Shown here piece by piece: positions 37,846 to 53,830 of a DNA stretch of 64,000 bases. The stretch is from an uncultured Eubacteriales bacterium. Its GTDB lineage: Bacteria; Acidobacteriota; Aminicenantia; Aminicenantales; Aminicenantaceae. The stretch covers positions 15,040 to 79,039 of the forward strand of contig CAYTTR010000004.1 of the NCBI GenBank assembly GCA_964440805.1, written 5' to 3'. A program made the translations under genes and the position numbers. Numbering within the stretch: the first letter of the stretch is position 1; each line of letters opens with the position of its first letter. Below the pieces are notes generated by a model. That model was not told the DNA's origin. It searched no databases and saw nothing but the letters and a program-made list of their open reading frames with translations.

Positions 37846-39154
37846 GCTTTACTGGTATAGTGACAGCAAAGGTTAAGCCTTTGCCTTGCTCGCTGTCCAC
37901 ATCGATTTTCCCCTCATGTTTCTGGATAATGCTGTAACTTATGGAAAGTCCCAGGCCGGTTCCTTTTCCCACTTCTTTGGTGGTGAAAAAAGGTTCAAAA
38001 ATTCGCCTTTTGTCTTCTTCACTCATTCCATGGCCGGTATCAGCGAAAGAAATGCGAATGTTTTTTCCATCATCATCAAGCTGGGTGGTTAAGGTAAGTG
38101 TACCCTTTCCGTCCATGGCTTCGGCTGCGTTGATTATGATGTTGGTGAATACTTGTTGTAATTGACCGCCGTCAGCAATAGTTCTGGGGAGATTAGAGTC
38201 ATAATTTCTTTTTATTTTAATATTTTGGAAAAGAACCTGTCTTTCCACAATGGAGAGAGATTTTTCTACAATTTCATTAATATCCACCGATGACATTTCC
38301 GGTTCCTTGGGCCGGGCAAATTCCAGGAGCCCCTTGACTATATCCTTGCAGCGGGATGTTTCCTTGACGATTTTTCTCAAATTTTCATAGTGAGGACTGT
38401 TTTTTTTGGTATCTTCAAGGAGAAGGTGACTGTAAATCAGGATTCCACCCAGAGGATTATTTATTTCGTGAGCGATTCCGGCAGCCAGTTTTCCCAGGGA
38501 GGCCAGTTTTTCCGATTGGACAAGATGGGTTTGCATGGCAGTAAGCTCCTTGGTCCTTTCTTCCACTTTTTTCTCCAGGGTTTTTCCCCACTCAAGAAGT
38601 TTTCTGTTAGCTTCCTTTAGGTTGTCTATCATAGAATTAAAGGATTCAGCTAAGTAGCCCAGTTCATCAGAAGAGCGGATTTCAACTTTGTGGGAGAGGT
38701 CGCCGTTGGCGATGCTTTTAGTGGCAGCCACCATTTTATGCAGGGGTTTGATGATGCGGGAGGTGGAAAAATTTAGAATTATGAGGAGAAGAACTACACA
38801 GAGAGAAGCCATAATAGTAAAAGTCAACATCAGACGGTTTGTAGTGTCAATGTAAGGTTTTTCCAGCATTCCAACATAAAGAATGCCGATAATTTTTCCG
38901 TTTATATTTCGGATAGGTTCATAGGCGGTGATATACCAGTCATTGACAACAAAGGCCCGGTCAATCCATGATTTTCCTTCCCGGAGAACGGCAGTGTTGA
39001 CTTCTTTGGAGACCCTTGTCCCTAAGGCTCTGGTTTCGTCTTTATTCCTGACATTGGTGGAAATGCGGAGGTCTTTTTGAAAGATGGTTACAGTTCCTAT
39101 TTCGCGGCCTTTATACTTTTTCCCTTTATAAACGATTTCCTTTACCCGGTCCAC
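37826..39154 (-). CDS. sensor histidine kinase, C-terminal part (distal Cache half, TM2, HAMP, HisKA, HATPase_c)
   Basis: GTG start. It contains GTVTIFQKDLRISTNV...AFVVNDWYITAYEPI (Cache), TM, HAMP, the H-box AAGIAHEINNPL, the N-box and G boxes DTGHGM and GTGLGLSI. Confidence 0.8.
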   Translation of the reverse strand: MDRVKEIVYKGKKYKGREIGTVTIFQKDLRISTNVRNKDETRALGTRVSKEVNTAVLREGKSWIDRAFVVNDWYITAYEPIRNINGKIIGILYVGMLEKPYIDTTNRLMLTFTIMASLCVVLLLIILNFSTSRIIKPLHKMVAATKSIANGDLSHKVEIRSSDELGYLAESFNSMIDNLKEANRKLLEWGKTLEKKVEERTKELTAMQTHLVQSEKLASLGKLAAGIAHEINNPLGGILIYSHLLLEDTKKNSPHYENLRKIVKETSRCKDIVKGLLEFARPKEPEMSSVDINEIVEKSLSIVERQVLFQNIKIKRNYDSNLPRTIADGGQLQQVFTNIIINAAEAMDGKGTLTLTTQLDDDGKNIRISFADTGHGMSEEDKRRIFEPFFTTKEVGKGTGLGLSISYSIIQKHEGKIDVDSEQGKGLTFAVTIPVKLEDNNE

Positions 39155-39158
39155 TATT

Positions 39159-39695
39159 TCATGATTGCGGTTTAGCAGTGGTTATGAATTCCATATAAGC
39201 CTGATTGGCTAATTGACTTCCTTCTTTGAGGAGCTCTTCTCTTGGGATTACTTGAGGAGAGGTGACCGCCTGTCCTTTAAGGGCTCGCCTTACAAATTCG
39301 TCTGTGGATTGATCATTCCCGGCTACTTCCGGATTCCTTGAGCGGAGAATAACTTTTCCCTGATGGTCGCAAATAGTGAGTGCATCCAATCCGTTTTCTT
39401 GCCTGACTTTTCCCAGAATTCTTAACAGTGCTTCCCGGTTTTGAACTCGAACCGCCTGATGAAGACTTTCCCTGGATGAGGTCATGGTCACAATGTCTTT
39501 GATATCATTTAGTTTGCCGTTAAAAACCAGCCAGGCGGCAGCCAGATCATGCCTTACTTTTGCTTGAGCCTGGGTTATAAGTGTATTTTTAACCAGACGC
39601 CAGCCAATGATAAGAGAGATCAATCCTCCAAAGATTATAACGAAGAGAAAACTAAGGATGATTTTTTTGCGAAGGGAAAGACGCAAAGGCTTCAT
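39159..39695 (-). CDS. sensor histidine kinase, N-terminal part (TM1 + proximal Cache half), separated from the rest by a frame change
   Basis: 178 aa with TM1 (ILSFLFVIIFGGLISLIIGW) followed by periplasmic sensor sequence. It stops 4 nt before the next ORF, and the downstream frame is already open as PLLNRNHEIVD over the same nucleotides. Confidence 0.65.
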   Translation of the reverse strand: MKPLRLSLRKKIILSFLFVIIFGGLISLIIGWRLVKNTLITQAQAKVRHDLAAAWLVFNGKLNDIKDIVTMTSSRESLHQAVRVQNREALLRILGKVRQENGLDALTICDHQGKVILRSRNPEVAGNDQSTDEFVRRALKGQAVTSPQVIPREELLKEGSQLANQAYMEFITTAKPQS

Positions 39696-39881: not shown

Positions 39882-41342
39882 TTATTTCTTTAGCCTTTCG
39901 ATTAGCTCTCCGTGATGGTTGTAAATATTGATAACCAAAGGCATATCACCAGGAAGAGCATGAGTCCCGCAGGCATGACAGGGATCATAAGGCCGGAAAG
40001 CCATTTCTGCCAGGTTTAGTAAACCTTCGGAGACTTTACCGCCTTTAATAAAAGCTTTGGCAGCTTTTTCAACCGACATGGTGATAGCTGCTGCATTGTT
40101 TACGGTGGCCACGATTAAGTTGGCTTCGGTCAGGATGCCTTTGGAATCTGTTTTGTAGTGGTGGATGAGAGTTCCACGGGGTGCTTCCACAATTCCTACT
40201 CCTTCATCGGGTGTTTCTGTAGGGATGTTTCTAATATTGGGATCGGTTATATCCTTGTTTTCCAGTAATTGTACCATTGCTTCTGTAGCTTGAAGGGCCT
40301 CGATTAAGCGGGCCCAGTGAAAAGCCAAGGTATGGTGAGACGGTTTTCCTCCCAGGACTTCATACATTTTCTCGTAGGCCTCCTGGGCCAGAGGAGTAGC
40401 CATTCCGTCGGAAGCATTCAACCGGGCAAGGGGGGCCACCCGGTAGATGCCGCTGTCTTTACCTTCGCTGAATCCATTCCAACCCACTTTTTTCAAGAAG
40501 GGGAACTTAATGTAGGTCCAGGGCTCTACATGTTCTGAAATATGATCAAGGTATTCGCTGGGGGAAAACTTGGCGTATTCTTTTCCTGTTGGATCGACTA
40601 CCCGGACCGGTCCGTCGTAAAAGTTTACTTTGTTATTTTCATCAACCAGGCCCATGTAATAGGTTTCCATCTTGTAGGCGTCCCCTGTGACCAGGTCGAC
40701 ATACTCTTTGTTCTTGAGCACTACATCATCGAAAATCTGCAAAGCAAACTGAGCAAATTCAACAGCGAATTTGGCTGTTTCCAGGAACTTGAGGCGGTGT
40801 TCTTCATCCAGGCCCTTGGATACTCCTCCAGGGAGGCCGGAAACCGGATGAATGACTTTTCCGCATAAATGATTAAGAATATCCCGGCATTCTCTCCTGA
40901 CCCGGATGACTTTTCCTCCGATCTCCAGCCCCACTTTACCCAGCACGCCAAGAATATTTCGTTCGGCTGCAGGTGCCTGAGGCCCGACCACAAAGTCCGG
41001 TCCTCCGAGAAAAAAGAAATGGAGCGTATGGTCCTCCATCATGAAAGTATTGTAGATAAGTTCGCGAAGCATTTTGGCGGCGGGAGTAGGTTGAACATGA
41101 AACAGGTCGTCCAGGGTTTTGGTTGAAGCCATGTGGTGGGCAGTGGGGCAAACACCGCATATCCGCGGGGTAATGCGGGGCATTTCCTCAGCCGGACGGC
41201 CTACTGCGAACTGTTCGAATCCGCGAAGTTCCGGTATTTGAAGAAAAGCTCTTTCTACATCTCCTTTGTCATCCAGAAAGATTTCAATTTTTCCATGTCC
41301 TTCCAGACGGGTGATAGGGTCTATAGTTATGCGTTGGCTCAT
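39882..41342 (-). CDS. mvhA: group-3c [NiFe]-hydrogenase large subunit (MvhA-type)
   Basis: 486 aa with RICGVCPTAHH near the N-terminus and DPCHACGTH followed by a 25-aa cleavable extension. Confidence 0.9.
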   Translation of the reverse strand: MSQRITIDPITRLEGHGKIEIFLDDKGDVERAFLQIPELRGFEQFAVGRPAEEMPRITPRICGVCPTAHHMASTKTLDDLFHVQPTPAAKMLRELIYNTFMMEDHTLHFFFLGGPDFVVGPQAPAAERNILGVLGKVGLEIGGKVIRVRRECRDILNHLCGKVIHPVSGLPGGVSKGLDEEHRLKFLETAKFAVEFAQFALQIFDDVVLKNKEYVDLVTGDAYKMETYYMGLVDENNKVNFYDGPVRVVDPTGKEYAKFSPSEYLDHISEHVEPWTYIKFPFLKKVGWNGFSEGKDSGIYRVAPLARLNASDGMATPLAQEAYEKMYEVLGGKPSHHTLAFHWARLIEALQATEAMVQLLENKDITDPNIRNIPTETPDEGVGIVEAPRGTLIHHYKTDSKGILTEANLIVATVNNAAAITMSVEKAAKAFIKGGKVSEGLLNLAEMAFRPYDPCHACGTHALPGDMPLVINIYNHHGELIERLKK

Positions 41343-42319
41343 TTTGATTCCTCCATTTTGCGCCTTCTTAAGATGGATTTAGGCAGGCTGAAGCGGTAAA
41401 AAGTGCCGGCTGGATCTACAATGGTTTGAACCACTTTTTCAATTTCTTTTTCGTCGTCTGTGTCCAGAATTGAGGCAAAGGCAGCCAGGAATTTAGCTCC
41501 CTGGTCGAAGACCTGGTCGGTTGGTCCAAAGCAGCCCCGGCAGGGCATGTTGGCTTCAATGCAGCGCTCCCCGCATCCAGTCCGTGTAGCCGGGCCAAGA
41601 CAAACAACTCCCTGGGCGAGAAAACATTTCTCCGGGTCGAGCATAATTTCCCAGGGGCGTTTTATCTCTTTGACAGCCATTTTTTCCGGTTTTGATTCGT
41701 TGCGGTCGCAGTCGTCACAAAGTGATTTGTTGGGGGAGAGAACTGCACCCTTGGGAGGCAGCTTTCCTTCGAGAATAGCTTGAACCGCCTCCATGATTAA
41801 GTTTTTCGGGGGGGCACATCCCGGAAGATAATAATCCACGTCAATAACCTGGTCAAGGGCATAAACGGTATCATAAAAGCTGGGCAGATAAAGCTCTTTT
41901 CCATCAACGGTGCATTTTTCCTGAGGGACTACACCGTCAGGGTTGTCCGTAGAAGGAGTGGTATGATAAGATCGGTTAAAAATTGTTTCTTTGTCCCAAA
42001 AATTGGCCAGGCCAGGAACCCCTCCGAGATGGGCACAGGAGCCGAAGGCTACCACCAGTTGGGATTTCTTCCGGAGAAGATCAACCATTTCTTGTTGTTC
42101 AGACAGGCGGACGGCTCCGTTAATGAAGCTCACAGCAATAGAGCCATCGTCCATGGCCTCTACGTCTTTTTTCTTGAAGTCGAGAGCCACCGGCCAGAAG
42201 ACAATGTCCACTGCTTCAACCACTTTCAGAATGTCTTCGGCAAGGTCGACCACAGCCTCCTCGCATCCGCCGCAGGAGGCACACCAGTAAAAAGCAACTT
42301 TAGGTTTGTCATTACTCAT
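41339..42319 (-). CDS. mvhG: group-3c [NiFe]-hydrogenase small subunit (MvhG-type)
   Basis: 326 aa with N-terminal [28 protein letters not shown] and distal cluster cysteines. It overlaps mvhA by 4 nt. Confidence 0.85.
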
Positions 42320-42743
42320 TATGATTTCCTCCGTTCCAGGACAGGGGTCCTAATTTACGTATTTCTTCTGTGAATTCATTGCATACTTTCTGGAACTTTG
42401 CTCCTTCCGCCGCTGAAACCCATTCCAGGCGGAAGCGTTCTTTTTCGATTCCGAACTGTTCCAACATTTTAGAGAGTAATCTGTGCCTTCTTAAAGCTTT
42501 GTAGTTTCCCTCTTGGTAATGACAATCGCCGGGGTGACACCCAGAAATAAGGACACCGTCTGCGCCTTCTCTGAAAGCTTTGAGGACAAATTGAGGGTCT
42601 ACTCTACCGCTGCACATGACCCTGATAATCCGCATGTTGGGAGCATAGGTCATGCGGGCAGTGCCGGCGAGATCAGCGCCCGTATAAGAGCACCAATTGC
42701 ATAAAAAGCCAACCAATTTAGGGTCGAAGGCTTGCTCGCTCAT
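42312..42743 (-). CDS. mvhD: methyl-viologen-reducing hydrogenase delta subunit (MvhD/FlpD)
   Basis: 143 aa with [24 protein letters not shown] and [21 protein letters not shown]. Confidence 0.85.
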
Positions 42744-42832
42744 TTATTGGCCTCCTTCCAATTTTACGGTCGTCTCCTGAAGAGAAAACCTTGTATTATG
42801 GACGAATTGAATCGTTTATTCTACCACTTTTT

Positions 42833-44590
42833 TTATTCAATAAACAGGCCCTCGATCTCAGCAAAGATCTGGGCATCCCGGAAATGTTTCTGTTGCGAAG
42901 CAGCGCTGGGGCAGGCAGAAACACAGGTGCCGCATCCTTTGCAGAGGGCATCATTGATTTCAGAAATCCCCTTCTCTTTATTGAAGGTGATGGCGGTAAA
43001 AGGGCAAAGTCCCACGCAGAGCTGGCAGCCGGAGCAAAGTTCTTCATCTATTTCGGCTGTAATGGGTTCCAGCTCAAAGACACCCTTATCAGCTAAGGCC
43101 AAGGCTTCGGAAGCAGCTGCTCCTGCTTGAGCCACTGTATCAGGGATATCTTTGGGAGACTGGCAGGTTCCGGCCAGGAAAATTCCGTCGGAAAATGTTG
43201 AAACCGGAGCCAGTTTAGGATGGCGCTCGAGAAAGAAAGTGTCTTGACTGCAGGATATATTGAAAATGTGAGCCAATTCATTTTGCTCAATTCCCGGCTC
43301 AAGACCAGTGGCCAGTATAACCATGTCTACTGGAATCCGGCGGACCGCTCCTAACAAAGTATCTTCTACCCCGATTACAAGTTTTCCCTCTTCGCTTTCT
43401 GTCAGGGGGATATCGCTTATTTCTGATACTCTGCCCCGAATAAACTTGGTTCCTTCCTCGAGCAATCGATGATAGAACTCTTCGTACCCTTTTCCGAAAC
43501 AGCGCATATCGATGTAGAAGTCATATATATCAGCTTCTGTTTTTTCCTTGAGCAGATGGGCGAATTTAAGCGAGTACATGCAGCAGACCCTTGAGCAGTA
43601 TTCGTTGTAGTTTTCATCCCGCGAGCCAACGCAGTGAATAATGCCCACTGCTTTAGGTTCTTCTCCATTGGCCAAAAGAATGTTACCGCCGGTTGGACCT
43701 GAGGCATTAACCAGCTTCTCGAATTCTATGGCAGTTATGACATTAGGAAAGCGCCCGTAGCCGTAGGCCGGTATTTTCCGGGGATCAAAAGGTTTAAAGC
43801 CGGAGGCAAGGATAATGGATCCCACTTCAATCTCTTTTTCTTTCTCCTCCATTTCGTGGTTGATAGCCTCTTTTTCGCAGACTTTTTCACAGAGTTTGCA
43901 GTTTCCGGTTTTAAAATGAATGCAGGCTTCTTCGTCGATAAAGGGAACCATGGGAACAGCTTGTCTTATTGGAACCCGGACGGCGGTAAGGGGTCCTAAT
44001 AGGAGTTCTTCATGAATTACTTTGCGTCCGTGAAGATCTTCGACCGTAATGGCTTCAGTGGGACAAAAATAAGCGCAGGCGGCACAACCGATGCAAGCTT
44101 CTGATTCTTTACCGAAAGGAGGAGCTACTTCTCTATCTTTTCCCCGGTTGATGAAGCTAATAGCATTGGCTCCCACAACATCTTCACAGGTACGGACACA
44201 CAGCCCGCAGAGAATACATTTCTCATGGGGATCCTTGATTTCAAAACGGGTCTTTTCAATTCCCAGGTCCTCGGCAATTTTCTGAACAGGTTCAGCTGCC
44301 GGGGCTCGGGCCATCAGCATTTCTACATTTAGTTTTCTGGCTCTCAGGGCTCTTTCTGAGGAGGTCTCAACCATCATTCCGTCGCGGGCTTGGGTGTTGC
44401 ATGATGTAACCAGATCTTTTTCTCCATGAACATCGATTTCCACCACGCAAACCCGGCAGGCGGCATAAGGCTCAAGCAGCGGGTGATAGCAGAGAGTGGG
44501 GATGTGAACATCCGCCTTTTCCGCTGCTTGAAGAATAGTTGTTCCTTCCTCAACCTGAATTTTTTTTCCGTCTATGGTGATGTCGATCAT
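42833..44590 (-). CDS. chimeric Fe-S flavoprotein: NuoG/HydA-type N-terminus (2Fe-2S + 2x4Fe-4S) fused to the C-terminal two-thirds of HdrA
   Basis: Residues 1-185 contain [18 protein letters not shown]...LCYHP...CRVCVVEI...TSC and [12 protein letters not shown]...[12 protein letters not shown]. From ~205 onward the sequence is HdrA-like: [72 protein letters not shown], and a C-terminal ferredoxin [12 protein letters not shown]...[12 protein letters not shown]. Confidence 0.75.
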   Translation of the reverse strand: [585 protein letters not shown]

Positions 44591-44602
44591 GATTCCTCCT
44601 CC

Positions 44603-46435
44603 TTACTCAATTTTTACGGCTCCGAAATTGCAGACGTCAAAACAGACGCCACATTTAATACACTTATCCTGAACGATACGATGAAGCTGATTTTTTTCTC
44701 CTATAATAGCATCGGAAGCGCAGTTGCGGCGGCAGAGGTCGCAGCCGTGTCCGACTTCAACACAGATTTTTTCATCGATAGTGTAGGTGTTAAGCTCGCG
44801 GCAGACATGAGCCGGACATTTTTTATTGGTTATATGAGCTTCATATTCTTCCCTGAAATATCTCAAAGTGGTCAAAACTGGATTAGGAGCAGTTTTTCCC
44901 AGCCCGCAGAGGGCTGTATCTTTAATGGAAACAGCCAGGTCTTCCAGGAGATTCAGGTCTTCCATTGTCCCTTCACCCTTTGTAATCCGGTCCAGGATTT
45001 CCAGCATGGCTTTTGTCCCTTCCCGGCAGGGAGTACATTTGCCGCAGCTTTCATCCTGGGTGAAGGATAGGAAGTATTTGGCTATATCCACCATGCAGGT
45101 GTCCTCGTCCATGACCACCATTCCTCCTGAGCCCATCATGGAACCTGCGTCTGTCAGGCTTTCGTAGTCTATGGTGAGATCAATTTGTTCCTTGGGTATG
45201 CAACCTCCTGAGGGGCCTCCGGTCTGAACGGCTTTGAATTCTTTTCCTTGAGGAATACCCCCTCCGATTTCGTATATAATTTCTCTGAGGGTAATGCCCA
45301 TGGGGACTTCAACCAGGCCGGTGTTGTTGATTTTTCCTACTATGGAAAAGACTTTTGTTCCTTTGCTGGTTTTGGTGCCGATGTGGGAATACCAGTCAGC
45401 TCCCCGGTTGATAATGGGGGAAACATTGGCCCAGGTTTCCACATTGTTGATGCAGGTGGGCTGTCCGTAGAGTCCTTTCTGAGCAGGATAGGGGGGCCTG
45501 GGTCTGGGTTCACCTAATCTTCCTTCGATTGAGGCGAGAAGGGCTGTTTCCTCTCCGCAAACAAAGGCTCCAGCGCCGCGGGCTACTTTGATATCGAAAT
45601 CGAAGCCTGTTCCCAGAATATCCTCACCAAGAAGACCGTATTCCCTTGCTTGTTTGAGGGCTATATTTAGTCTTTTTAAAGCCAAAGGATATTCATTGCG
45701 GACATAAACATAACCCACACCGACTCCTATGGCCTTGGCTCCGATGACCATTCCCTCAATGACAGAATGTGGATCTGCCTCCAGAATGCTTCGGTCCATA
45801 AAGGCTCCCGGGTCACCTTCGTCACCGTTACAGACAATATACTTCATGCCTCCGTTAGAGGTTGAGGCAGCCCGGACGAATTCCCATTTAAGGCCGGTAG
45901 GAAAACCAGCTCCTCCCCGGCCGCGAAGACCGGATTTTTTTACCTCAGCGATGATTTCTTCCGGAGTCATTTTGGTTAAAGCCTTAACCACAGCCTGATA
46001 ACCGTCCCGGGCGATATATTCATCGATTTTTTCCGGATCAATGAGCCCCCGGTTACGTAAGGCAATAAGGACTTGTTTTTTGAAAAAATCAATTTCATTC
46101 AATACCGGAACCGCTTTTTCTTCCTCCGGCGGTCTGTACATTAGTTTTTGAACGGGGCGTCCTTTTAGAAAATGTTCCTCAACTAAGTGGGGAATGTCTT
46201 TTAAAGTAAGTTGCTGGTAAAAGATGTTTCCCGGCTGGACCACAAGCAAGGGGCCACGTTCACAAAAGCCGTTGCAGCCTGTGGTTACAACCAGAACTTC
46301 ATCTTCCAAGCCTTGTTCTTTGATTTCTTTTTCCAGGGTTTCCTTGATTTCAAACGAGCGGTTGGAAACGCAAGCTGTTCCGGCGCAAACCATTAAATGA
46401 ATCCGGTATCTTTTCTCTGTTGCTTTTTCGGGCAT
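44603..46435 (-). CDS. NuoF-like NAD(H)-binding flavoprotein subunit (HydB/HndC type)
   Basis: 610 aa. It has an N-terminal thioredoxin-like 2Fe-2S domain (VCAGTACVS...GCNGFCERGP), GRGGAGFPTGLKW, CGKCTPCREG and two C-terminal CxxCxxCxxxC motifs. Confidence 0.9.
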   Translation of the reverse strand: MPEKATEKRYRIHLMVCAGTACVSNRSFEIKETLEKEIKEQGLEDEVLVVTTGCNGFCERGPLLVVQPGNIFYQQLTLKDIPHLVEEHFLKGRPVQKLMYRPPEEEKAVPVLNEIDFFKKQVLIALRNRGLIDPEKIDEYIARDGYQAVVKALTKMTPEEIIAEVKKSGLRGRGGAGFPTGLKWEFVRAASTSNGGMKYIVCNGDEGDPGAFMDRSILEADPHSVIEGMVIGAKAIGVGVGYVYVRNEYPLALKRLNIALKQAREYGLLGEDILGTGFDFDIKVARGAGAFVCGEETALLASIEGRLGEPRPRPPYPAQKGLYGQPTCINNVETWANVSPIINRGADWYSHIGTKTSKGTKVFSIVGKINNTGLVEVPMGITLREIIYEIGGGIPQGKEFKAVQTGGPSGGCIPKEQIDLTIDYESLTDAGSMMGSGGMVVMDEDTCMVDIAKYFLSFTQDESCGKCTPCREGTKAMLEILDRITKGEGTMEDLNLLEDLAVSIKDTALCGLGKTAPNPVLTTLRYFREEYEAHITNKKCPAHVCRELNTYTIDEKICVEVGHGCDLCRRNCASDAIIGEKNQLHRIVQDKCIKCGVCFDVCNFGAVKIE

Positions 46436-46448
46436 ATCTCCCCTCCTC

Positions 46449-46838
46449 TCAATAATCGGTCTTTTCGCTGCCTATTCCCAGGGCATAGTCCTTGACCACA
46501 TTTCCACCGGTAATGTGTTTCTCAAAAATTTCCTTAACCTTTTTTTCGTCAAGGTCAACATATTTTACTGGAGGCTTTCCTTTGAGTTCCACTGTGGCCA
46601 TTGGTTCCCGGCTGCAGAGTCCGGCACAACCAGAAGTGGTGAGTAGGATATCAGTGATATCCTTTTCTTCGAGTTCCTTCATGAAAGTATTCATGATACT
46701 TCTGGCTCCGGCTGCTATGCCACAGGTTCCCATATGAACCGTGATTTTAGCCTTGTATTCTCCACCTTCTCGCAGTCCAGTTTGTTTTCGGGTTTTTTCC
46801 CGGATTTTTTCTAAATCTTCAAGGGTAAGTTTAGGCAT
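46449..46838 (-). CDS. thioredoxin-like (2Fe-2S) ferredoxin (HndB-like)
   Basis: ATG 46838 follows GAGGGGG. The motifs are HMGTCGIAAGA and TSGCAGLCSREP. Confidence 0.8.
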   Translation of the reverse strand: MPKLTLEDLEKIREKTRKQTGLREGGEYKAKITVHMGTCGIAAGARSIMNTFMKELEEKDITDILLTTSGCAGLCSREPMATVELKGKPPVKYVDLDEKKVKEIFEKHITGGNVVKDYALGIGSEKTDY

Positions 46839-46849
46839 TTTTCCCCCTC

Positions 46850-47302
46850 TCATTTTTGATATTTTTTAATGACACCCGGGACTTTCATCTGGGGAATCTT
46901 TCCATGAACTTCTTCTCCCACCATAACCACTGGCGCCAGTCCGCAGCATCCCACACAACGAACTGCGTCCAGGCTGAACTTTAAATCCTCAGTTGTTTCC
47001 CCGGTCTTAATCCCCAGTTCCCGTTCAAATTTTTCCAGAACCAATTGAGCCCCTCTGACATGGCAGGCCGTTCCCATGCAGACATGAATTGGGTTCTTCC
47101 CTCTGGGCACTAAGCTGAAAGCGTTGAAAAAAGTAGCCAGACTCAGTACCCGGCTTAAGGGGACATTGAGCTCCTTGGAGACTTGAACGAGTGTTTCTTT
47201 GGGGAGGTAACCATAATGTTCCTGGATGTCTTGGAGGATGGCAATTATTGAACTCTGTTGAGGTTCATAACGTTCGATTATTTCAGTGACTTTTTCCTCC
47301 AT
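46850..47302 (-). CDS. NuoE-like 2Fe-2S subunit (HydC/HndA type)
   Basis: 150 aa with HVCMGTACHVRGA and VRCVGCCGLAPV. Confidence 0.9.
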   Translation of the reverse strand: MEEKVTEIIERYEPQQSSIIAILQDIQEHYGYLPKETLVQVSKELNVPLSRVLSLATFFNAFSLVPRGKNPIHVCMGTACHVRGAQLVLEKFERELGIKTGETTEDLKFSLDAVRCVGCCGLAPVVMVGEEVHGKIPQMKVPGVIKKYQK

Positions 47303-47306
47303 GTTT

Positions 47307-47849
47307 TTACCTCCTTATTAGATCGGTTCCTTCTTTTAAGTTGTTTATGATAAATGACATGACTCCTGGAGAGTTCAAAGGTTGTCCATTAAATCTGGTC
47401 CTGATATCCTTGGTGGAAAAGGTGAACTCCTGGCCGTCTTTTTGGTGGATATAAACAATATCCACTTCCGGATGACCCATTATCAGGGTAGCCAATGTTT
47501 GAGGGATATCTCCAAGAGGTTTCATGTCCCAGTGATCTGTTTTAAAGGTGGCCCTGACTTTTGTCCCCCGGCCGGGAGAGGATTCAATTGAGAAATGTCC
47601 CCCTGCAGCCCGGGCCGCTTCAGCCAGCAGAGAAAGCCCCAGTCCAACTTTCCGGGTAGTCCGGGAAGTAAAGAAAGGATCCACAGCTTTTTTTAAAGTT
47701 TCTTTATCCATCCCTTGTCCGTTGTCTTCTATACTTAGGATAAGTAGATTGCCGGCAATATTTTCTTCCAGACGGATTATTATTCTGGAAGCCTGAGCAG
47801 AAATAGAATTCTCGGCAATGTCAAGCAGATGCAATGACAAGTCTTCCAT
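47307..47849 (-). CDS. histidine-kinase-like ATPase (HATPase_c only)
   Basis: 180 aa with LLDIAENSISA (N-box-like), IEDNGQGMD (G1) and VGLGLSLL (G2). There is no HisKA or H-box. Confidence 0.75.
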   Translation of the reverse strand: MEDLSLHLLDIAENSISAQASRIIIRLEENIAGNLLILSIEDNGQGMDKETLKKAVDPFFTSRTTRKVGLGLSLLAEAARAAGGHFSIESSPGRGTKVRATFKTDHWDMKPLGDIPQTLATLIMGHPEVDIVYIHQKDGQEFTFSTKDIRTRFNGQPLNSPGVMSFIINNLKEGTDLIRR

Positions 47850-47856
47850 TTTTCCT

Positions 47857-48585
47857 TTAATTTAAAAGCCTTCTTCCGTTTTTATTTAATAAAGCTAATT
47901 TAATTTCTTCTATAGAAACTTTTTCCAGTTGAAAAAAAGTAAATCTCCGGCCGATTTCCTCCGGGCGGTGAGCATCTGATGAAGCTGTCATGGGTAATGA
48001 AGGAGAAAACTTTCTCCGGGCATCTTTAATAGAGATAAGAGGCGAGGTTTCCAGAGCGTCCAGGGCAAGCTCAGGAGGGATGAATCCCAGTTGGCTGAAG
48101 ATGCTGAAAGCCCCCCGGTCGATATGGGAGGCCATTGCCAGTCCACCTAAAGAATGGATGGCATCGACCGTCTCATTGATGGTAAGAGCGCAGGCACCAA
48201 TGAGGAGACGAGGATTGAAATTCAGAACTTCGCCTTTTTCATTGACTACTGCCTGGAGCCCGAAAGCTTTTTCATCGTTTTCACCGGGAAGATGGGCGTA
48301 AATCATTTCCTGGAGTCCGAAGGCCTGGCGGGCATTATCGAAAAGTCCCAAAAGATGAATTTCTTCCTGGGTGGTCACTTCAATCCCGGGAAAGATGAAA
48401 ATCTTATTGCTTTTGGCGGCGTCGGTAACGGCAGGAACATTCTCGGCTGAATTGTGGTCACAAATGCCCAGGATATCTAACTCTTCTTTAAGGGCTCTTT
48501 CCACAATAGCCCGGGGGGACATGCTCAATTCAGCGCAAGGAGAAAGGCAGGTATGAATGTGGAGATCAGCTTTGAAACTCTTCAC
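47857..48585 (-). CDS. PHP-domain phosphoesterase
   Basis: 242 aa with ADLHIHTCLSPCA, ICDHNS, ASHID and SSDAH, the metal-binding His/Asp series of PHP domains. Confidence 0.8.
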   Translation of the reverse strand: MKSFKADLHIHTCLSPCAELSMSPRAIVERALKEELDILGICDHNSAENVPAVTDAAKSNKIFIFPGIEVTTQEEIHLLGLFDNARQAFGLQEMIYAHLPGENDEKAFGLQAVVNEKGEVLNFNPRLLIGACALTINETVDAIHSLGGLAMASHIDRGAFSIFSQLGFIPPELALDALETSPLISIKDARRKFSPSLPMTASSDAHRPEEIGRRFTFFQLEKVSIEEIKLALLNKNGRRLLN

Positions 48586-48931
48586 GCTTTTTTTCTCCTT
48601 CTTTAAGCAATTGATAAAGTTTGCCTGAGGCGGTAAAGGCCGTTTCCTGGCTAAGGAGAAGAGGCACTCCTTCTTCTCCGGCTTTTTTTACGGCTGCATC
48701 CTCAGGCATCCGTCCGTTGACCAGGATAATTCCGCTCAATTCCTTCAATACCGCCACAGCCACAATATTCTGATGGATTTGAAGAGTTATCCACAGATTT
48801 TTCGCTTTGCTGTTGGCCATGACGTCGCTAAGAAGATCTGAGGTATAACCGCTGGAGACCTCGATGTCCAGCCGGTCTTCAGCGGTCAGGGCCTCAAGAC
48901 CCAGTTGTTTTATAATGGTTTTTAACTTCAT
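48566..48931 (-). CDS. DRTGG domain protein
   Basis: 121 aa, a paralogue of 50734-51102 (SDLLSDVMANSKAKNLWITLQ / SDLMSDVLAFGKPGLLLLTGL; GRMPEDAAVKKAGEEGVPLL / GKKPDKEAVELAERKNISLL). Confidence 0.7.
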   Translation of the reverse strand: MKLKTIIKQLGLEALTAEDRLDIEVSSGYTSDLLSDVMANSKAKNLWITLQIHQNIVAVAVLKELSGIILVNGRMPEDAAVKKAGEEGVPLLLSQETAFTASGKLYQLLKEGEKKREEFQS

Positions 48932-50301
48932 TTTTTTCCGGCCTTTCTTTTTTTCTTAGAGCCTTGATTCCTGGGAGAATAAGCCTTCTGGGTTTTTTCA
49001 AGCATTTTAATTAGTTCTGTGGAAAGCTTCTTGAAATGTTGAGGGACCATGGCAAAACAATCTGTTAGTTCCGCCTCTCCCCTGACTAAATCCTCGGCAA
49101 AAATAGGACAACTGGGAGAACCGCAGGCTCCGCAATCAATTTTAGGAAGCTTTTTATAGATTTCATCTTTTTCTTTCTTTTTTTGAATGGCTAAGGAGAG
49201 ATCATCATAAAGAGGCTTCAACGGCCGGGGCTTGAGCTCTCCTTCTATAAAAAAGCTTCCTTCCCGGTAGCGTTTGCGGATGCTGACGATATCCGGACAG
49301 GCCTTGACTTTTTCCAGTTCAAGAGTTTCCAGAAGCTGAACTATTTTGTTATAGGAGATATAAAGATTTTCTACGGTTAATGAACCGCCCACGCATCCCT
49401 GGGGACAGGAATAAGCTTCAATGAAGTCGATATGACTTAGTTTGCCTCGCTCGATATCTTCAAAAACCTTAGTGATTTCTGCAATACCCGATACTGCCAG
49501 TGAATTCTTCAGTTTGAGGGTGCGACGGATACCTCCGGCAATAGCCCAGCCCAAACCCAGAATGCATATTTTTTCCAGAGAATCTCCCTCATCTTTCTTG
49601 TCCATGTTTTCTATAGCAGAAAGCAGAGGGCCGTAAATATCAGAAACAGCAATAGCTCCATCAAGATGGGATTTGCCTTTTTCAGCAGGCTGTTTAATGG
49701 ATATCATTTTAACTGGGCAAGGTGTAATGTAAAAAGCCCCGATTTCTTTTTCTTTAAGTCCGAGCTGACTTGATTTCTTTTTCTTTATTTCTCTTCCTGC
49801 AAGTTCTCTGGGAATATCAATGGGAGTGACATGCTGGACAAGAGAAGGATATTTTACTTGAATCAATCTGACTACAGTAGGGCAGACATTGGAAATGATT
49901 GGACGGGGACCTTTATTTTCTCTTAAATATTCCTGCATAGCTAAGCTTACCTCACCGCAGGTAAAAGCCAAGTCATAGGCATCGTCGAATCCAAGGCGGC
50001 GCAGTCCGCGGAGGATTTTACCTGGTAGAATCTCCTGGCCAAACTGGGCATAAAGAGCCGGTGAAGGGACAGCCACTGTGTAACGGAACCTGGTTAGTTC
50101 TCCTACCGGATCAGTTAAAGGAACAATTGCATTTGAGGGACAGGCGGTGATACATTCGCCGCAGTCGATGCACTTATCTTCCAGAATATGGGCTTTTCCT
50201 CCTCTGACCCGTATGGCCTGGGTAGGGCAAGCTCTCATGCAGCTCATCCGGCCTCGACACTTTTCTGTATCAATGCGAATAGTGTGGAAATATTCAGTCA
50301 T
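48928..50301 (-). CDS. [FeFe]-hydrogenase-like protein (2x4Fe-4S + H-cluster-domain-like core + C-terminal CxxCxxxxC Fe-S motif), putative sensor
   Basis: 457 aa with CMRACPTQAI...CIDCGECITACP. Its counterparts of the H-cluster motifs are degenerate: SNVCP (versus TSCCP), TPCPVK (versus MPCxxK) and SCPQGCVGG (versus CxxGCxxGG). The C-terminal motif is CGACGSPSCP...C. It lacks a NuoG-like N-terminus. Confidence 0.7.
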   Translation of the reverse strand: MTEYFHTIRIDTEKCRGRMSCMRACPTQAIRVRGGKAHILEDKCIDCGECITACPSNAIVPLTDPVGELTRFRYTVAVPSPALYAQFGQEILPGKILRGLRRLGFDDAYDLAFTCGEVSLAMQEYLRENKGPRPIISNVCPTVVRLIQVKYPSLVQHVTPIDIPRELAGREIKKKKSSQLGLKEKEIGAFYITPCPVKMISIKQPAEKGKSHLDGAIAVSDIYGPLLSAIENMDKKDEGDSLEKICILGLGWAIAGGIRRTLKLKNSLAVSGIAEITKVFEDIERGKLSHIDFIEAYSCPQGCVGGSLTVENLYISYNKIVQLLETLELEKVKACPDIVSIRKRYREGSFFIEGELKPRPLKPLYDDLSLAIQKKKEKDEIYKKLPKIDCGACGSPSCPIFAEDLVRGEAELTDCFAMVPQHFKKLSTELIKMLEKTQKAYSPRNQGSKKKRKAGKK

Positions 50302-50737
50302 GGTTCTTTTCCAGAAAAAAAATCATCCTGAGGAATGTTCCTTCTCCGGGAATAGAGGTTATGGTAAAAAGATCGGCATTTTTCTTTATATTAGGAAGAC
50401 CCATGCCGGCACCGAAGCCCATCTCTCTCATTTCCTCGGTGGCGGTGGAGTAACCTTCCTGCATGGCCAATTCAATATTTTCTATGCCCTGCCCTTGATC
50501 ATCGACCTCGATCTTGATTGCTCTGGGATTGAGCACCAGAGATAATTCTCCTTCTTGGGCATACATAACAACGTTCATTTCTGCCTCATAGGAGGCGATA
50601 GCCACCCTGCGTATGATTTCAGGAGCGATCCCGATTTCCCTGAGAATTTCTTTGACTTCTGTGGAAACATTTCCTGCCCGGTTGAAGTCTCCTCCCTTAA
50701 TGGAAAAAGATTGGAATAATTCATCCTTCCTTGTCAT
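50294..50737 (-). CDS. anti-sigma-factor-type Ser/Thr kinase-like ATPase (HATPase_c only)
   Basis: 147 aa with ASYEAEMNVVMY, DDQGQGIEN and GFGAGMGLPNI. Confidence 0.7.
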   Translation of the reverse strand: MTRKDELFQSFSIKGGDFNRAGNVSTEVKEILREIGIAPEIIRRVAIASYEAEMNVVMYAQEGELSLVLNPRAIKIEVDDQGQGIENIELAMQEGYSTATEEMREMGFGAGMGLPNIKKNADLFTITSIPGEGTFLRMIFFLEKNHD

Positions 50738-51102
50738 CCTGTTTTTTTTTCAGCCGTAGAAAATACTCCCGGAATCCCGGATTTATATAAAATACCGCAG
50801 GCTTCGTACATCATAAAATTAGTGCAGAGAAGAGAAATGTTTTTTCTCTCGGCTAATTCCACTGCTTCTTTATCAGGTTTTTTGCCGCGGACATAAACGA
50901 TGGCCTTGGCTTCGATGATATCGGCGGTGCGCACCGATTGCTGGTTGGACAATCCGGTGAGAAGAAGAAGGCCCGGTTTCCCAAAAGCCAGGACATCGCT
51001 CATCAGATCAGAACCGCCGGCAAAAGAGATTTCCTGATCGAGAAGGCTGTCTCCGGAAATGACTTCAGCCTTGAGAAGTTCTTTTATTTTTCTGAGATTC
51101 AT
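50734..51102 (-). CDS. DRTGG domain protein
   Basis: 122 aa, a paralogue of 48566-48931, with a 4-nt overlap with the downstream gene. Confidence 0.7.
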   Translation of the reverse strand: MNLRKIKELLKAEVISGDSLLDQEISFAGGSDLMSDVLAFGKPGLLLLTGLSNQQSVRTADIIEAKAIVYVRGKKPDKEAVELAERKNISLLCTNFMMYEACGILYKSGIPGVFSTAEKKTG

Positions 51103-51107
51103 TACTT

Positions 51108-51959
51108 TTAATGTTCTTTTTGAACTTTTTTAAAAATTGTCTTTCCTTTCCTGATAATTCTTTCCGATGGACTGACAATAGTGGGGCAGTTTTCCCAGCA
51201 AGCGCCGCAGCCGTTGCATGTGTCCACATCGACAAAGCGGGCTTTTTTCTTGATTCTGGCCTTGAAATTTCCCACATGACCGGAAATTTCTTCCACTTCG
51301 CTCCAGGTTAAAAGCTGGATATTGGGATGTTTGCCCACTTCGGTCATTTTAGGAGTAAGAATGCAGGCGGAGCAGTCCAGGGTGGGGAAAGTTTTATCCA
51401 GCATGGACATGTGGCCGCCGATGGAAGGCTCTTTTTCTACCAAGTAAACTTTTTTTCCTGAATTAGCATAAGTAAGGGCAGCATGAATGCCGGCAATGCC
51501 GCCTCCGACAATCAGAATTTCCGGTCTTACCGGAACTTCTTTTTTCATTAACGGATCATGGAGAGCCACCCGGCGCACTGCGGCTGAAATCAAGGCTTTG
51601 GCTTTCTTGGTGGCTTTGTCGGGATCCTTGGTAACCCAGGAAACATGTTCCCGGATATTGGACATTTGAAAGAAAAAGGGATTAAGTCCTCCCTCAGCCG
51701 TTGCCCCACGGAAAGTAGGTTCGTGCATTAAAGGTGAACAGGAGGCCACTACTACCCGGTTCAGGTTATGATCTCTAATATTTTGTTTTATAAGTTCCTG
51801 GCCAGGATCCGAGCACATGAATTTATGCTCCTTGGCTACAATCACGTTATCCAACTTGGAGGCGAATTCGGCCGCTTCATAGACATTAACTTTTCCGGCA
51901 ATATTGGTGCCGCAGTGGCAGACAAAAACTCCGATTCTTGGTTGGCCGTTTTCTTGCAT
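51108..51959 (-). CDS. hdrA: HdrA N-terminal fragment (N-terminal Cys domain + first part of the FAD domain + first ferredoxin-insert motif)
   Basis: 283 aa with IGVFVCHCGTNIAG...VVVASCSP...NIREHVSWV, the FAD site ILIVGGGIAGIHAA, LVEKEPSIGGHM, DKTFPTLDCSACILTPKM and CNGCGACWENCP. It stops 24 codons after that last motif. Confidence 0.8.
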   Translation of the reverse strand: MQENGQPRIGVFVCHCGTNIAGKVNVYEAAEFASKLDNVIVAKEHKFMCSDPGQELIKQNIRDHNLNRVVVASCSPLMHEPTFRGATAEGGLNPFFFQMSNIREHVSWVTKDPDKATKKAKALISAAVRRVALHDPLMKKEVPVRPEILIVGGGIAGIHAALTYANSGKKVYLVEKEPSIGGHMSMLDKTFPTLDCSACILTPKMTEVGKHPNIQLLTWSEVEEISGHVGNFKARIKKKARFVDVDTCNGCGACWENCPTIVSPSERIIRKGKTIFKKVQKEH

Positions 51960-51960
51960 G

Positions 51961-52845
51961 TTATCCTCCTATCTGGATTCTTGACCACATATTATTCAGG
52001 GGAATTATGGAGCGGTTAAAGCCCAACTCTTCCCTCGGAAGGCCGAAAGCTAATCCCATGAGCTGGGAAAAATAGAGAATGGGGAGCTTAAAATCTTCTT
52101 TAAAAGCCTTGGCCACCTTGCTCTGGATTATCTCCAAGTTGAACTGGCACAGCGGACAAATGGTCACAATAACATCAGCCTTTTTCCGGCGAGCTTCTTT
52201 GAGCAGGACATAGTTGAGCTGAGTGCCCACTTCCTCAATGGTTCCTGTTAAAGAGCCTCCGCAGCATTTGGTCTTGGCTGCATAATCAACAGGAGAAGCT
52301 CCCAGGGTTTCCATAAGTGAATCAAGGCTTGTTGGATAATCAGGATCATCGAAATCAGTGTATGGCCTGACAAGCTGGCATCCGTAATAGCAGGCAATTC
52401 GGAGTCCAACCAAAGGGTTTTGAACTTTTGTCTGGATAGTTTTAAAGCCGACTTCATTCACCAGCACATCGAGAGGGTGTTTTACTTCCACTCCACCCTT
52501 ATACTCACAACTTGAGTTTTTAAGGTCATCAAGGATTTTTTTTGCTTGGTTGCTTCCTTCTTTGAGAAAATGGTTGGATTTTTTTAAGGTCAGAAAGCAG
52601 CCGGCACAGGGAGCCAGAATATCCTTGCCTGTTTTTTCAGCAATGGATAAATTCCGGCCGCAGATGGCAGCAGCCATTTTGTCGTCAACAGAGAAGTAAG
52701 CGGTTGCCCCGCAGCAATTCCAATCCTCCATCTCCTCCGTTTCCAGTCCCAGTGTTTTTAATACCGGAAGCAGAGACTCTTCATAATGCTTGGCGTTTCC
52801 CTGCATGGAACATCCGGGATAATAAACATAATCTTTCATCTTCAT
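51961..52845 (-). CDS. hdrB: heterodisulfide reductase subunit B (two CCG domains)
   Basis: 294 aa with YYPGCS...WNCCGA...APCAGC and YYGCQ...KCCGGS...CPLCQ. Confidence 0.9.
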   Translation of the reverse strand: MKMKDYVYYPGCSMQGNAKHYEESLLPVLKTLGLETEEMEDWNCCGATAYFSVDDKMAAAICGRNLSIAEKTGKDILAPCAGCFLTLKKSNHFLKEGSNQAKKILDDLKNSSCEYKGGVEVKHPLDVLVNEVGFKTIQTKVQNPLVGLRIACYYGCQLVRPYTDFDDPDYPTSLDSLMETLGASPVDYAAKTKCCGGSLTGTIEEVGTQLNYVLLKEARRKKADVIVTICPLCQFNLEIIQSKVAKAFKEDFKLPILYFSQLMGLAFGLPREELGFNRSIIPLNNMWSRIQIGG

Positions 52846-53417
52846 TCCTCCTTGGCTGCCTTTAATATCCGGCGAAGCTGTCTGGTATTTTTAATTTTTT
52901 CTTTTTTTAAGCTCATTCGTCCGGTCTTCATCAGGCTCATACCCATTGGGGCCATTTTGAGAAGCCCCATTGGATTTTTGGATTTAAGGTATAGATTGAG
53001 GACAAGCCAGGTTTCAGAGTTGCGGCCGTTTTTGGCAATCAGGCGGTGCATTTCCCGGGCCAGAACGGGCATGGAAAACTTGGAGGGATAAACTCCTTCT
53101 TCTATAGCTTTTCTTTTCAGAGCGTACATGACATCGGTTATTTTGATTTTAGAAGGGCAGCGGACCTGACAGGTGTAACATGACGGGCAGAGCCAGATGG
53201 TAAAACTTTTTAAGGCTTCTTCTTTAAATCCGTTTTTTATGAATGAGATGATTTTACGAGGGGGATAATCCATATAAATAGCCATTGGACAGGAACTGCT
53301 GCAAGTGCCGCATTGAATACAGCGGTCTATTTCCTCGCAGTGGGACATCTCCTTGATTTCGTCAAGGAAATTTCTGTCCAGTTCCTCTTCAAACTTAACT
53401 TTTCTCTGGATTTCCAT
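52842..53417 (-). CDS. hdrC: heterodisulfide reductase subunit C
   Basis: 191 aa with CIQCGTCSSSCP and CPSCYTCQVRCP. It overlaps hdrB by 4 nt. Confidence 0.85.
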   Translation of the reverse strand: MEIQRKVKFEEELDRNFLDEIKEMSHCEEIDRCIQCGTCSSSCPMAIYMDYPPRKIISFIKNGFKEEALKSFTIWLCPSCYTCQVRCPSKIKITDVMYALKRKAIEEGVYPSKFSMPVLAREMHRLIAKNGRNSETWLVLNLYLKSKNPMGLLKMAPMGMSLMKTGRMSLKKEKIKNTRQLRRILKAAKEE

Positions 53418-53634: not shown

Positions 53635-53663
53635 ATAATATTTTTTATAACAGGCCTTGTCAA
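53635..53663 (-). promoter_or_regulatory. candidate sigma-70 promoter for the hdr-nuoEF-mvh operon
   Basis: The minus strand reads TTGACA-N17-TATTAT, ~220 nt upstream of hdrC. It lies in AT-rich DNA, so a chance match is possible. Confidence 0.3.
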
Positions 53664-53792: not shown

Positions 53793-53830
53793 AAAAAAAG
53801 AAGGGGGGAGAAGCCCTCTGCTTCTCCCCT
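53793..53830 (-). terminator. rho-independent terminator after the LTXXQ gene
   Basis: On the minus strand a 9-bp GC-rich stem GGGGAGAAG / CTTCTCCCC encloses a 7-nt loop and is followed by TTCTTTTTTTAA. It lies 30 nt after the stop at 53862. Confidence 0.75.

Follow-up and report, generated by a model that had tools for sequence, protein, structure and literature searches.

The 64,000-nucleotide (nt) stretch of DNA analysed here (the window), from an uncultured bacterium of the Aminicenantaceae, raises the question of how a heterodisulfide reductase subunit A (HdrA) can be encoded in two separate parts, and of what the second part has been joined to. The sequence-only reading of this DNA had claimed that hdrA is split at the first cysteine motif of its inserted ferredoxin domain and that the remainder lies in the open reading frame (ORF) 42833-44590, about 6.5 kb away. 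Both claims hold. Two minus-strand genes, coding for proteins of 283 and 585 amino acids (aa), give complementary coverage of HdrA (residues 3-263 and 244/276-650), and the distance between them is 6518 bp. The 585-aa protein carries in addition, in front of its HdrA part, a domain of the BfuA type, the electron wire of the Bfu enzymes. This fusion suggests an enzyme complex, so far undescribed, joining two electron-bifurcating machines.

The 283-aa protein (N piece) aligns without large gaps to residues 3-263 of Methanothermococcus thermolithotrophicus HdrA (5odc_A, E 9e-100). It contains IGVFVCHCGTNIAG, GGGIAGI, DKTFPTLDCSACILTPKM and CNGCGACWENCP, and consists of the N-terminal Fe-S domain, the first half of the thioredoxin reductase (TrxR)-like flavin adenine dinucleotide (FAD) domain, the region equivalent to Cys197, motif 1 of the inserted ferredoxin domain and a tail. 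C14, C16, C49, C74, C196 and C199 are invariant across split and intact relatives. As the sequence-only reading had it, the protein ends exactly 24 residues past the CP of motif 1, at a TAA stop (51108-51110). The tail is conserved, and a motif P-[SA]-x-[RK]-h-I-[RK]-x-G within it is common to Eiseniibacteriota, Chloroflexota and two further lineages. The next gene, encoding a DRTGG protein, begins 5 nt past the stop in a different frame, so that read-through could not merge the two; this, together with conservation of the stop, rules out a sequencing error at that position.

In the 585-aa protein, residues ~164/198-583 align to HdrA 244/276-650 (E 1e-112 to 1e-118), and residues 1-~190 form a Fe-S domain resembling NuoG and the N-terminus of HydA. 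This BfuA domain carries a [2Fe-2S] site (C34, C45, C48, C64), motif A (CILCGLCVRTC, C125-C135) and motif B (CIGCAACAYFCP, C166-C176-P); its residues 2-188 are colinear with the type-2 BfuA protein WorA (9mqx_A, E 2e-38), and all 12 of its cysteines are invariant among relatives. Its earlier description as 'hydA-headed' was loosely right: the N-terminal domain is HydA-like, but it has neither the His-ligated A3 cluster present in HydA nor any H-cluster domain, and is in this respect WorA-like. After motif B the protein runs through HEELLLGPLTAVRVPIRQAVP to the second motif of the inserted ferredoxin domain, motif 2' (CIHFKTGNCKLCEKVC; C223, C231, C234, C238; nt 43877-43924). Then come the second half of the FAD domain, with a [4Fe-4S] site (C320, C332, C336, C337; CVGSRD..CSRVCC.., to about residue 500), and a C-terminal 2x[4Fe-4S] ferredoxin domain (Pfam Fer4 513-564) in which C519-C529 and C550-C560 are invariant. 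The gene that follows this last domain is mvhD. Against the curated NCBIfam HdrA models, the N piece scores 376 bits and the fusion 440, under cutoffs of 1100-1400. No model dedicated to either HdrA piece was found in NCBIfam, and these genes therefore carry generic names in public genomes.

At the junction, BfuA homology stops at about residues 188-194 and HdrA homology starts at about 190-198. Intact relatives have motif 1 as C-x2-C-x2-C-x3-C-(P), about 8 residues, the segment G-x-G-x-RKA-x-Y-x-PFPQAVP and then motif 2' as C-x7-C-x2-C-x3-C; all four cysteines of each motif are invariant in split and intact forms. Both motifs exist in the window, but the N piece has motif 1 and the fusion has motif 2'. 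The sequence-only reading had seen in motif B an analogue of motif 1, from which HdrA resumes. Motif B is indeed present there; by homology, however, it is part of BfuA's own 2x[4Fe-4S] domain, where it pairs with motif A, and it is no replacement for motif 1 of HdrA, which would thus have to come in trans from the 283-aa protein. By counting motifs and from their conservation, we infer that motif 1 pairs with motif 2' across the two polypeptides, since otherwise the four motifs could not give four clusters. The TrxR-like FAD domain is divided in the same way, with its GGGIAGI half on the 283-aa and its second half on the 585-aa protein: since the N piece holds the GxGxxG element and the fusion the remainder of the domain, neither would bind FAD alone and both would be needed. 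A small duplication at the breakpoint, proposed earlier from the segments RKGKTIFKKVQ and VRVPIRQAVP, is not borne out. The tail of the N piece shows no significant similarity to the segment after motif 1 of intact HdrA (p = 0.25-0.6 against shuffles), and the breakpoint shares just a short P-S/N-E element, too short for statistics.

Protein searches returned at least 120 clusters for the N piece (81-93% identity, 281-288 aa) and at least 120 for the fusion (77-93% identity, 584-591 aa), the named ones being in the majority Candidatus Aminicenantes. A scan with one genome per species yielded 72 loci, on which tblastn mapping and ORF extraction were then done. Gene order, split and sizes are the same in all 33 loci that span both sides, among them Eiseniibacteriota (L031, 70% identity), metagenome-assembled genomes (MAGs) of Chloroflexota (L037, L038, 58%) and two complete chromosomes. 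With both E-values below 1e-99, joint coverage of the whole of HdrA recurring in 33 independent loci is far beyond chance. The N piece could have been a stand-alone 283-aa family with a complete fold. This was rejected: the form is common, yet it always occurs with the C piece in cis, and it is missing the second half of the FAD domain.

Selection was estimated between the window and six Aminicenantes relatives from the proportions of differing non-synonymous (pN) and synonymous (pS) sites. Synonymous sites are saturated (pS 0.70-0.89). The N piece has a pN of 0.07-0.09; in the fusion, pN is 0.08-0.12 over the HdrA part and 0.10-0.19 over the BfuA part, and in the 24-aa tail it is 0.11-0.21. 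This gives pN/pS of about 0.1 for both pieces and about 0.15-0.25 for the tail. Purifying selection is equally strong on the N and C pieces, and every cluster cysteine is invariant among relatives. The cofactor motifs thus all survive, as had been claimed, and selection, invariant cysteines and cross-phylum conservation argue for a functional split HdrA. Split and fusion are an old, inherited architecture across Aminicenantes, Eiseniibacteriota, Chloroflexota and at least three further lineages. The recombination once proposed between hdrA and a hydA-headed cassette therefore stands as to its partner, a HydABC-family (Bfu) subunit fused to the C part of HdrA, but not as a local event.

Relatives with an intact hdrA at this locus do exist. 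In Anaerolineae, Thermoleophilia, Hadarchaeota and one further archaeon, hdrA is one gene of 653-676 aa, followed by mvhD in nearly all and by mvhDGA in most, with hdrCB directly 5' in some (L067, L071). The full order hdrCBA-mvhDGA with intact hdrA occurs in Thermoleophilia only; Anaerolineae loci have intact hdrA-mvhDGA, or hdrCBA-mvhD (L063), and in Hadarchaeota, too, mvhDGA comes after the intact hdrA. These loci are the unsplit, ancestral-like state of the same locus type. Two of the Anaerolineae genes (L063, L066) have an in-frame TGA at the second cysteine of TLDC-x-x-C-ILTPKM (read 'TLDCAA*ILTPKM'), a ligand of the Cys197 region, which is probably a selenocysteine codon.

Split forms also vary. 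A representative library at 50% identity added two more short N-piece clusters (P0241, P0244) and one of 436 aa (P0243). In L079 a DRTGG gene follows the N piece, as in the window. In L073 the N piece and a gene for a 589-aa BfuA::HdrA-C protein share 8 nt at the start of the latter, nuoEF is not between them, and the gene 5' of the N piece is an unrelated one, not hdrBC. L077, the source of P0243, reads hdrC-hdrB-[HdrA-N in-frame NuoE/BfuC fusion]-nuoF-[BfuA::HdrA-C]-mvhD-mvhG-mvhA-hycI-hypA-hypF. The N piece of relatives is thus either free, with the conserved tail motif, or fused to BfuC, and the common denominator of all arrangements is the BfuA::HdrA-C fusion. Since the two pieces may be adjacent and overlapping (L073) or linked through BfuC (L077), the 6.5 kb spacing is lineage-specific and not a footprint of the event. 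A Planctomycetota HdrA of 1129 aa (L052:7685-11074) carries a GltD/NfnB-like NAD(P)H-flavoprotein module within the inserted ferredoxin domain. Its insertion site is the split site of the window. Judged by eye, its N-terminal part closely resembles that of P0243, which has the Bfu insertion instead.

The BfuA domain is accompanied by its usual partners. Bfu enzymes carry electrons of a third substrate through BfuA (A4/A3-A2-A1) into a BfuBC core that handles NAD(H) and ferredoxin (PMC9304861, PMC12318220); in the published survey none is fused to Hdr or Mvh, metagenomic sequences having been left out of it. The NuoF-like protein of the window aligns over its residues 10-607 to 7t2r_B 4-594 (E 1e-261), full length and as top structural-database match, followed in order by other BfuB/HydB structures (7q4v_B, 9n5u_B, 9mqx_B, 8a6t_B, 7p5h_B). 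Its domains are an N-terminal thioredoxin-like [2Fe-2S] domain (B5), the flavin mononucleotide/NADH core, a [4Fe-4S] cluster (B1) and a C-terminal 2x[4Fe-4S] domain (B3, B4); the alignment takes in the first and the last of these, which NuoF of complex I is without. Of the five residues that serve as B2/Zn ligands (C438, C476, H525, C531 and C536 in Acetomicrobium mobile), four are kept; whether this site is [2Fe-2S] or Zn is debated.

BfuB varies among relatives at its C-terminus. In the Chloroflexota version NuoF is fused to a GltD/NfnB-like module: in L038 (6802-9969) BfuB runs on into such a domain of ~490 aa, which replaces the C-terminal 2x[4Fe-4S] in a 1055-aa protein. This points to a possible subtype in which NADPH replaces ferredoxin or is used besides it. 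The BfuB match reaches only to about residue 548 in L038 and in eight Aminicenantes loci (L003, L004, L007, L010, L017, L032, L036, L044); in these eight an uncharacterised stretch of ~1.4 kb comes after it.

We propose that the cluster encodes one composite complex, made of MvhAGD, HdrBC, a two-polypeptide HdrA and a Bfu (HydABC-family, NuoEFG-like) module, BfuABC(D), with a bifurcating FAD, and we give this reading a probability of roughly 60%. One complex is proposed because HdrA keeps the hydrogenase at its input side and carries the fused Bfu wire at its output domain; the fissions and fusions of L077 and L073, together with strict co-conservation, also point to a joint assembly. The two pieces would reassemble into the HdrA fold, with FAD held at the interface between the N and C pieces and with both polypeptides supplying cysteine ligands to each [4Fe-4S] cluster of the inserted ferredoxin domain. 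Electrons from H2 would be bifurcated at the HdrA FAD. Those of high potential would go to the disulfide substrate of HdrBC, and those of low potential through the two-polypeptide ferredoxin domain and BfuA (A4-A2-A1) into the flavin/Fe-S core of BfuBC, which would pass them to NAD+ and ferredoxin. The two CCG domains of HdrB are intact, and the organism is a bacterium, without coenzymes M and B. We infer the direction of electrons and the acceptors from the inserted ferredoxin domain being the low-potential output (PMC9012536; preprint 10.64898/2026.04.10.717634) and from the A4-A2-A1 path described for BfuA (PMC12318220). A bolder version, to which we hold only tentatively, is that of a 'double-bifurcating' Mvh-Hdr-Bfu hydrogenase supercomplex, in which the low-potential electrons of HdrA would never exit as free ferredoxin and would enter, by way of the two-polypeptide ferredoxin domain, a second bifurcating core of a different mechanism, the FMN/Fe-S core of BfuBC.

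Several points weigh against the composite complex. The C476-equivalent of the B2/Zn site is T485 in the window, and each of the 40 Hdr-associated BfuB proteins checked has T, K or A there. In some relatives a GltD/NfnB-like module takes the position of BfuB's C-terminal ferredoxin domain, so that the set of acceptors may differ between lineages. L073, having no bfuCB between the pieces, indicates that BfuBC may not always belong to the complex. In a neighbour-joining tree of the HdrA parts, a single origin of the split forms lacks firm support (46/100 bootstrap). AlphaFold2 models of the single pieces, made from shallow alignments, are of low confidence (predicted local distance difference test, pLDDT, of 58.6 and 49.7), with only residues 1-130 of the BfuA domain above 85, and were not used for inference. 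Finally, the usual description of Aminicenantes is that of fermenters, a way of life that could favour H2 evolution.

This last point bears on an alternative that we consider unlikely, in which the same composite complex works in the opposite direction: NADH and reduced ferredoxin would be confurcated at BfuBC, and their electrons would reach MvhAGD through BfuA and HdrA to form H2. The enzyme would then be a [NiFe] analogue of HydABC, its HdrBC branch being idle, regulatory or conditional. Bfu enzymes are reversible and NiFe-HydABCSL does this chemistry (PMC9304861); the top match of BfuB is precisely the A. mobile NiFe-Bfu subunit, the regulator cassette with its [FeFe]-hydrogenase-like sensor is typical of fermentative HydABC-type clusters (PMC11406978), and Aminicenantes MAGs have been described as fermentative H2 producers (PMC10766756). 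However, electrons would have to enter HdrA by what is the low-potential output branch of all characterised HdrA-type enzymes, and by a rough estimate thiol-driven H2 formation is thermodynamically poor. Moreover, HdrBC is strictly co-conserved 5' in the Aminicenantes, Eiseniibacteriota and L038 loci that reach far enough; with intact CCG domains, this argues for a working disulfide branch. A reading still less probable does without double bifurcation: HdrA-C would be a structural or electron-wire adaptor between MvhAGD and BfuABC in a NiFe-Bfu hydrogenase, HdrA-N and HdrBC would be separate or accessory, and the FAD would be non-bifurcating. One BamE HdrA-like half of class II benzoyl-CoA reductase has just such a mainly structural, non-bifurcating FAD (preprint 10.64898/2026.04.10.717634), and the pieces of L073 have no hdrBC directly 5' and no bfuCB between them. 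Yet the N piece carries the GxGxxG element of a FAD domain completed on the C piece, its cysteines in motif 1 and the Cys197 region are invariant, it is fused to BfuC in L077 and selection on it is as strong as on the C piece. That the split is a sequencing or assembly artefact or a recent hdrA pseudogene, which nothing favours besides the unusual gene structure, can be dismissed because the stop and the lengths recur in over 100 protein clusters and across independent assemblies (33 loci, two complete chromosomes among them), pN/pS is about 0.1, the cysteines are invariant and the next gene is out of frame.

The proposed complex shares features with several known systems. The MvhAGD-HdrABC complex of hydrogenotrophic methanogens (5ODC, 8RVU, 7BKB) has the same subunits HdrA, B, C and MvhA, G, D, and the gene order hdrCBA-mvhDGA of the intact relatives. 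The window pieces jointly match every domain and cluster motif of methanogen HdrA at roughly 55-60% identity (alignments, judged by eye). Methanogen HdrA is one polypeptide of 650 aa, whereas that of the window is two, and its inserted ferredoxin domain is free at the surface and reduces soluble ferredoxin, whereas that of the window is flanked by the BfuA wire.

The closest known system is the class II benzoyl-CoA reductase (BCRII) Bam[(BC)2DEFGHI]2 of Geobacter metallireducens (preprint 10.64898/2026.04.10.717634; Bam-Bfu, PMC9304861), in the literature searched the only characterised coupling of a HydBC/Bfu module with an HdrA-type one. There BamGHI (HydBC/Bfu-type) is joined to the HdrA-type BamE, the MvhD-like BamF and the HdrBC-like BamD. 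Every subunit of BCRII is encoded by a separate gene, whereas BfuA and HdrA-C are covalently fused in the window. The two are also wired differently. In BCRII, electrons from the Bfu module enter HdrA at its input side (MvhD-like adaptor and C-terminal ferredoxin domain), and those of low potential leave through the inserted ferredoxin domain for the tungsten enzyme; in the window a [NiFe]-hydrogenase still occupies the input side and the Bfu module is attached to the inserted ferredoxin (output) domain. No AOR-like (BamB) gene was found among the ORFs and Pfam matches of the cluster 39882-53417, where BamB/C are absent compared with BCRII.

NiFe-HydABCSL of A. mobile (7T2R) and FeFe-HydABC likewise have BfuB with all domains, BfuC and the N-terminal domain of BfuA, and the former also has a [NiFe]-hydrogenase in its cluster. 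Unlike the window, NiFe-HydABCSL docks its hydrogenase directly on BfuA via A3, and HdrABC is absent; BfuA of the window lacks A3, has no C-terminal domain of its own and continues into HdrA. The two also differ in the C476-equivalent of the B2/Zn site, missing from BfuB of the window. Of the type-2 Bfu enzyme WorABCSL (9MQX), WorA shares with BfuA of the window A1 ([2Fe-2S]), A2 and A4 ([4Fe-4S]) and the lack of A3. It ends, however, in a Zn finger and a helix, the latter recruiting a separate WorS, whereas in the window the partner, HdrA-C, is in the same polypeptide. In HdrA9-11 of ANME-1 archaea (PMC9012536), as in L052, an NAD(P)H-linked flavoprotein module occupies the same insertion site, at the low-potential exit, but as a one-domain insertion into a single polypeptide of ~1100 aa, with no gene split and no BfuBC core.

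The genes concerned are densely packed on the minus strand from 53417 to 39882, in the order hdrC-hdrB-hdrA N piece-six regulators-bfuC-ferredoxin-bfuB-585-aa fusion-mvhD-mvhG-mvhA (Table 1). From the close spacing and the single strong promoter-like site, the cluster appears laid out like one operon; between hdrC and mvhA a pattern scan of this strand gave only weaker terminator-like matches (3-4 G-C pairs). The make-up of a group 3c [NiFe]-hydrogenase (MvhAGD) is present beside hdrA, although the VhuA and VhuG scores lie below the equivalog cutoffs. The best NCBIfam model for hdrC is CoB-CoM heterodisulfide reductase subunit C, with a score under its curated cutoff.

Table 1. Coordinates, in the window, of the cluster and of the signals in front of it
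Feature	Position	Strand	Basis or remark
Terminator-like hairpin	53805-53829	-	closes the upstream LTXXQ gene and precedes the promoter-like site; pattern match
Promoter-like site, TTGACA-17-TATTAT, 11/12 consensus	53635..53663	-	5' of hdrC; consensus scan, pattern match
hdrC, 191 aa, 2x[4Fe-4S]	52842..53417	-	Pfam Fer4_8/17
hdrB, 294 aa, two CCG domains	51961..52845	-	Pfam CCG x2, E 7e-31; NCBIfam best HdrB
hdrA N piece, 283 aa	51108..51959	-	structure-sequence match to HdrA
Motif 1 of the inserted ferredoxin domain, CNGCGACWENCP, C248, C251, C254, C258	51183..51218	-	invariant in split and intact relatives
Conserved C-terminal tail of the N piece, TIVSPSERIIRKGKTIFKKVQKEH	51111..51182	-	purifying selection; sequence comparison
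Six-gene regulatory cassette	47307..51102	-	Pfam
DRTGG gene	50734-51102	-	regulatory cassette
HATPase_c_2 gene	50294-50737	-	regulatory cassette
[FeFe]-hydrogenase-like Fe-S protein	48928-50301	-	regulatory cassette
Second DRTGG gene	48566-48931	-	regulatory cassette
PHP phosphoesterase	47857-48585	-	regulatory cassette
HATPase_c gene	47307-47849	-	regulatory cassette
bfuC / nuoE-like, 150 aa, [2Fe-2S]	46850..47302	-	Pfam 2Fe-2S_thioredx full length, E 5e-49; NCBIfam best HoxE, NuoE
Small thioredoxin-like [2Fe-2S] ferredoxin, 134 aa, HydD-like	46449..46853	-	Pfam, NCBIfam
bfuB / nuoF-like, 610 aa	44603..46435	-	full-length match to 7t2r_B, 7q4v_B
BfuA-like N-terminal domain of the 585-aa protein, residues 1-~190	44021..44590	-	Pfam, structure-sequence matches
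HdrA C part of the 585-aa protein, residues ~190-585	42833..44020	-	HdrA alignment
mvhD, 143 aa	42312..42743	-	Pfam FlpD, E 3e-58
mvhG, [NiFe]-hydrogenase small subunit, 326 aa	41339..42319	-	Pfam Oxidored_q6; NCBIfam best VhuG, E 2e-66
mvhA, [NiFe]-hydrogenase large subunit, 486 aa	39882..41342	-	Pfam NiFeSe_Hases; NCBIfam best VhuA, E 6e-127

Six regulator genes separate hdrA-N from bfuC. They are an addition specific to certain lineages, of the kind typical for HydABC-type clusters; the cassette is kept in synteny in Aminicenantes and Eiseniibacteriota, and the Chloroflexota version is without it. Its [FeFe]-hydrogenase-like protein (457 aa; Fe_hyd_lg_C, PF04060 'FeS' and an N-terminal 2x[4Fe-4S]) has H-cluster motifs that look degenerate by eye (e.g. 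NVCPTVV, TPCPVKM, SCPQGCVGG) and has DRTGG, GHKL-ATPase and PHP neighbours. It is probably a sensory or regulatory unit as seen beside HydABC-type clusters.

Downstream of mvhA, on the minus strand (32035-36485), lie the genes of another [NiFe]-hydrogenase, which is of the sulfhydrogenase/group 3b type. They encode an Fe-S subunit with Fer4_22 (353 aa), a subunit that binds FAD/NAD (286 aa), the small subunit (290 aa) and the large subunit, for which the call from GTG gives 581 aa. This is longer than expected for a group 3b-type large subunit, and the start is possibly wrong. The same group 3b-type cluster lies ~6 kb 3' of mvhA in many Aminicenantes loci. Between both hydrogenase clusters (36607-39695, minus strand) there is a dCache ORF of 178 aa and, 4 nt on, a sCache-HAMP-HisKA-HATPase sensor kinase of 442 aa, followed by a sigma-54-dependent response regulator of 412 aa. 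The two Cache ORFs might be one frameshift-split sensor or a true pair. In L077 a kinase and sigma-54 regulator pair is located 5' of hdrC instead. Elsewhere in the window, short tandem arrays with periods of 18 and 9 nt (5240-5306, 6699-6736, 6877-6928, 8461-8513) are intergenic and border two minus-strand genes (5308-6504 and 6997-8304), and the plus strand encodes a tricorn-protease-like protein of 1093 aa (28487-31768; PD40 repeats, Tricorn_C1, PDZ_Tricorn, Peptidase_S41).

All component families are already known, as are the NfnB-like insertion at the same site of HdrA and, in BCRII, the coupling of Bfu with an HdrA-type module. A split HdrA or an Hdr-Bfu fusion was not described in the literature searched, which did not cover Appel et al. 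2021 (BBA). Within that literature, the fission of hdrA, the BfuA::HdrA-C fusion and, in one lineage, the HdrA-N::BfuC fusion appear undescribed, as do the placement of a Bfu module on the output side with Mvh on the input side and the wide occurrence of this arrangement in Aminicenantes and further uncultured lineages.

[quoted passage not shown] For a coupled pair, the first structure (BCRII) appeared as a preprint in 2026; the window locus is a second natural combination, wired differently. Because the combination is fixed by gene fission and fusion, the physical link between modules can be read from sequence. The locus also offers a test case for a split flavin domain, for [4Fe-4S] clusters held between polypeptides and for the substrate of a bacterial HdrBC. 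Several uncultured phyla, dominant in anoxic sediments, have conserved its architecture, which is seemingly common in Aminicenantes, a group abundant in subsurface sediments. If the double-bifurcating scheme is true, it would be the second known hierarchical coupling of bifurcation modules and the first with Bfu on the output side, and by oxidising H2, coupled to the reduction of a disulfide, these bacteria would gain reduced ferredoxin as well as NADH, possibly where the partial pressure of H2 is very low.

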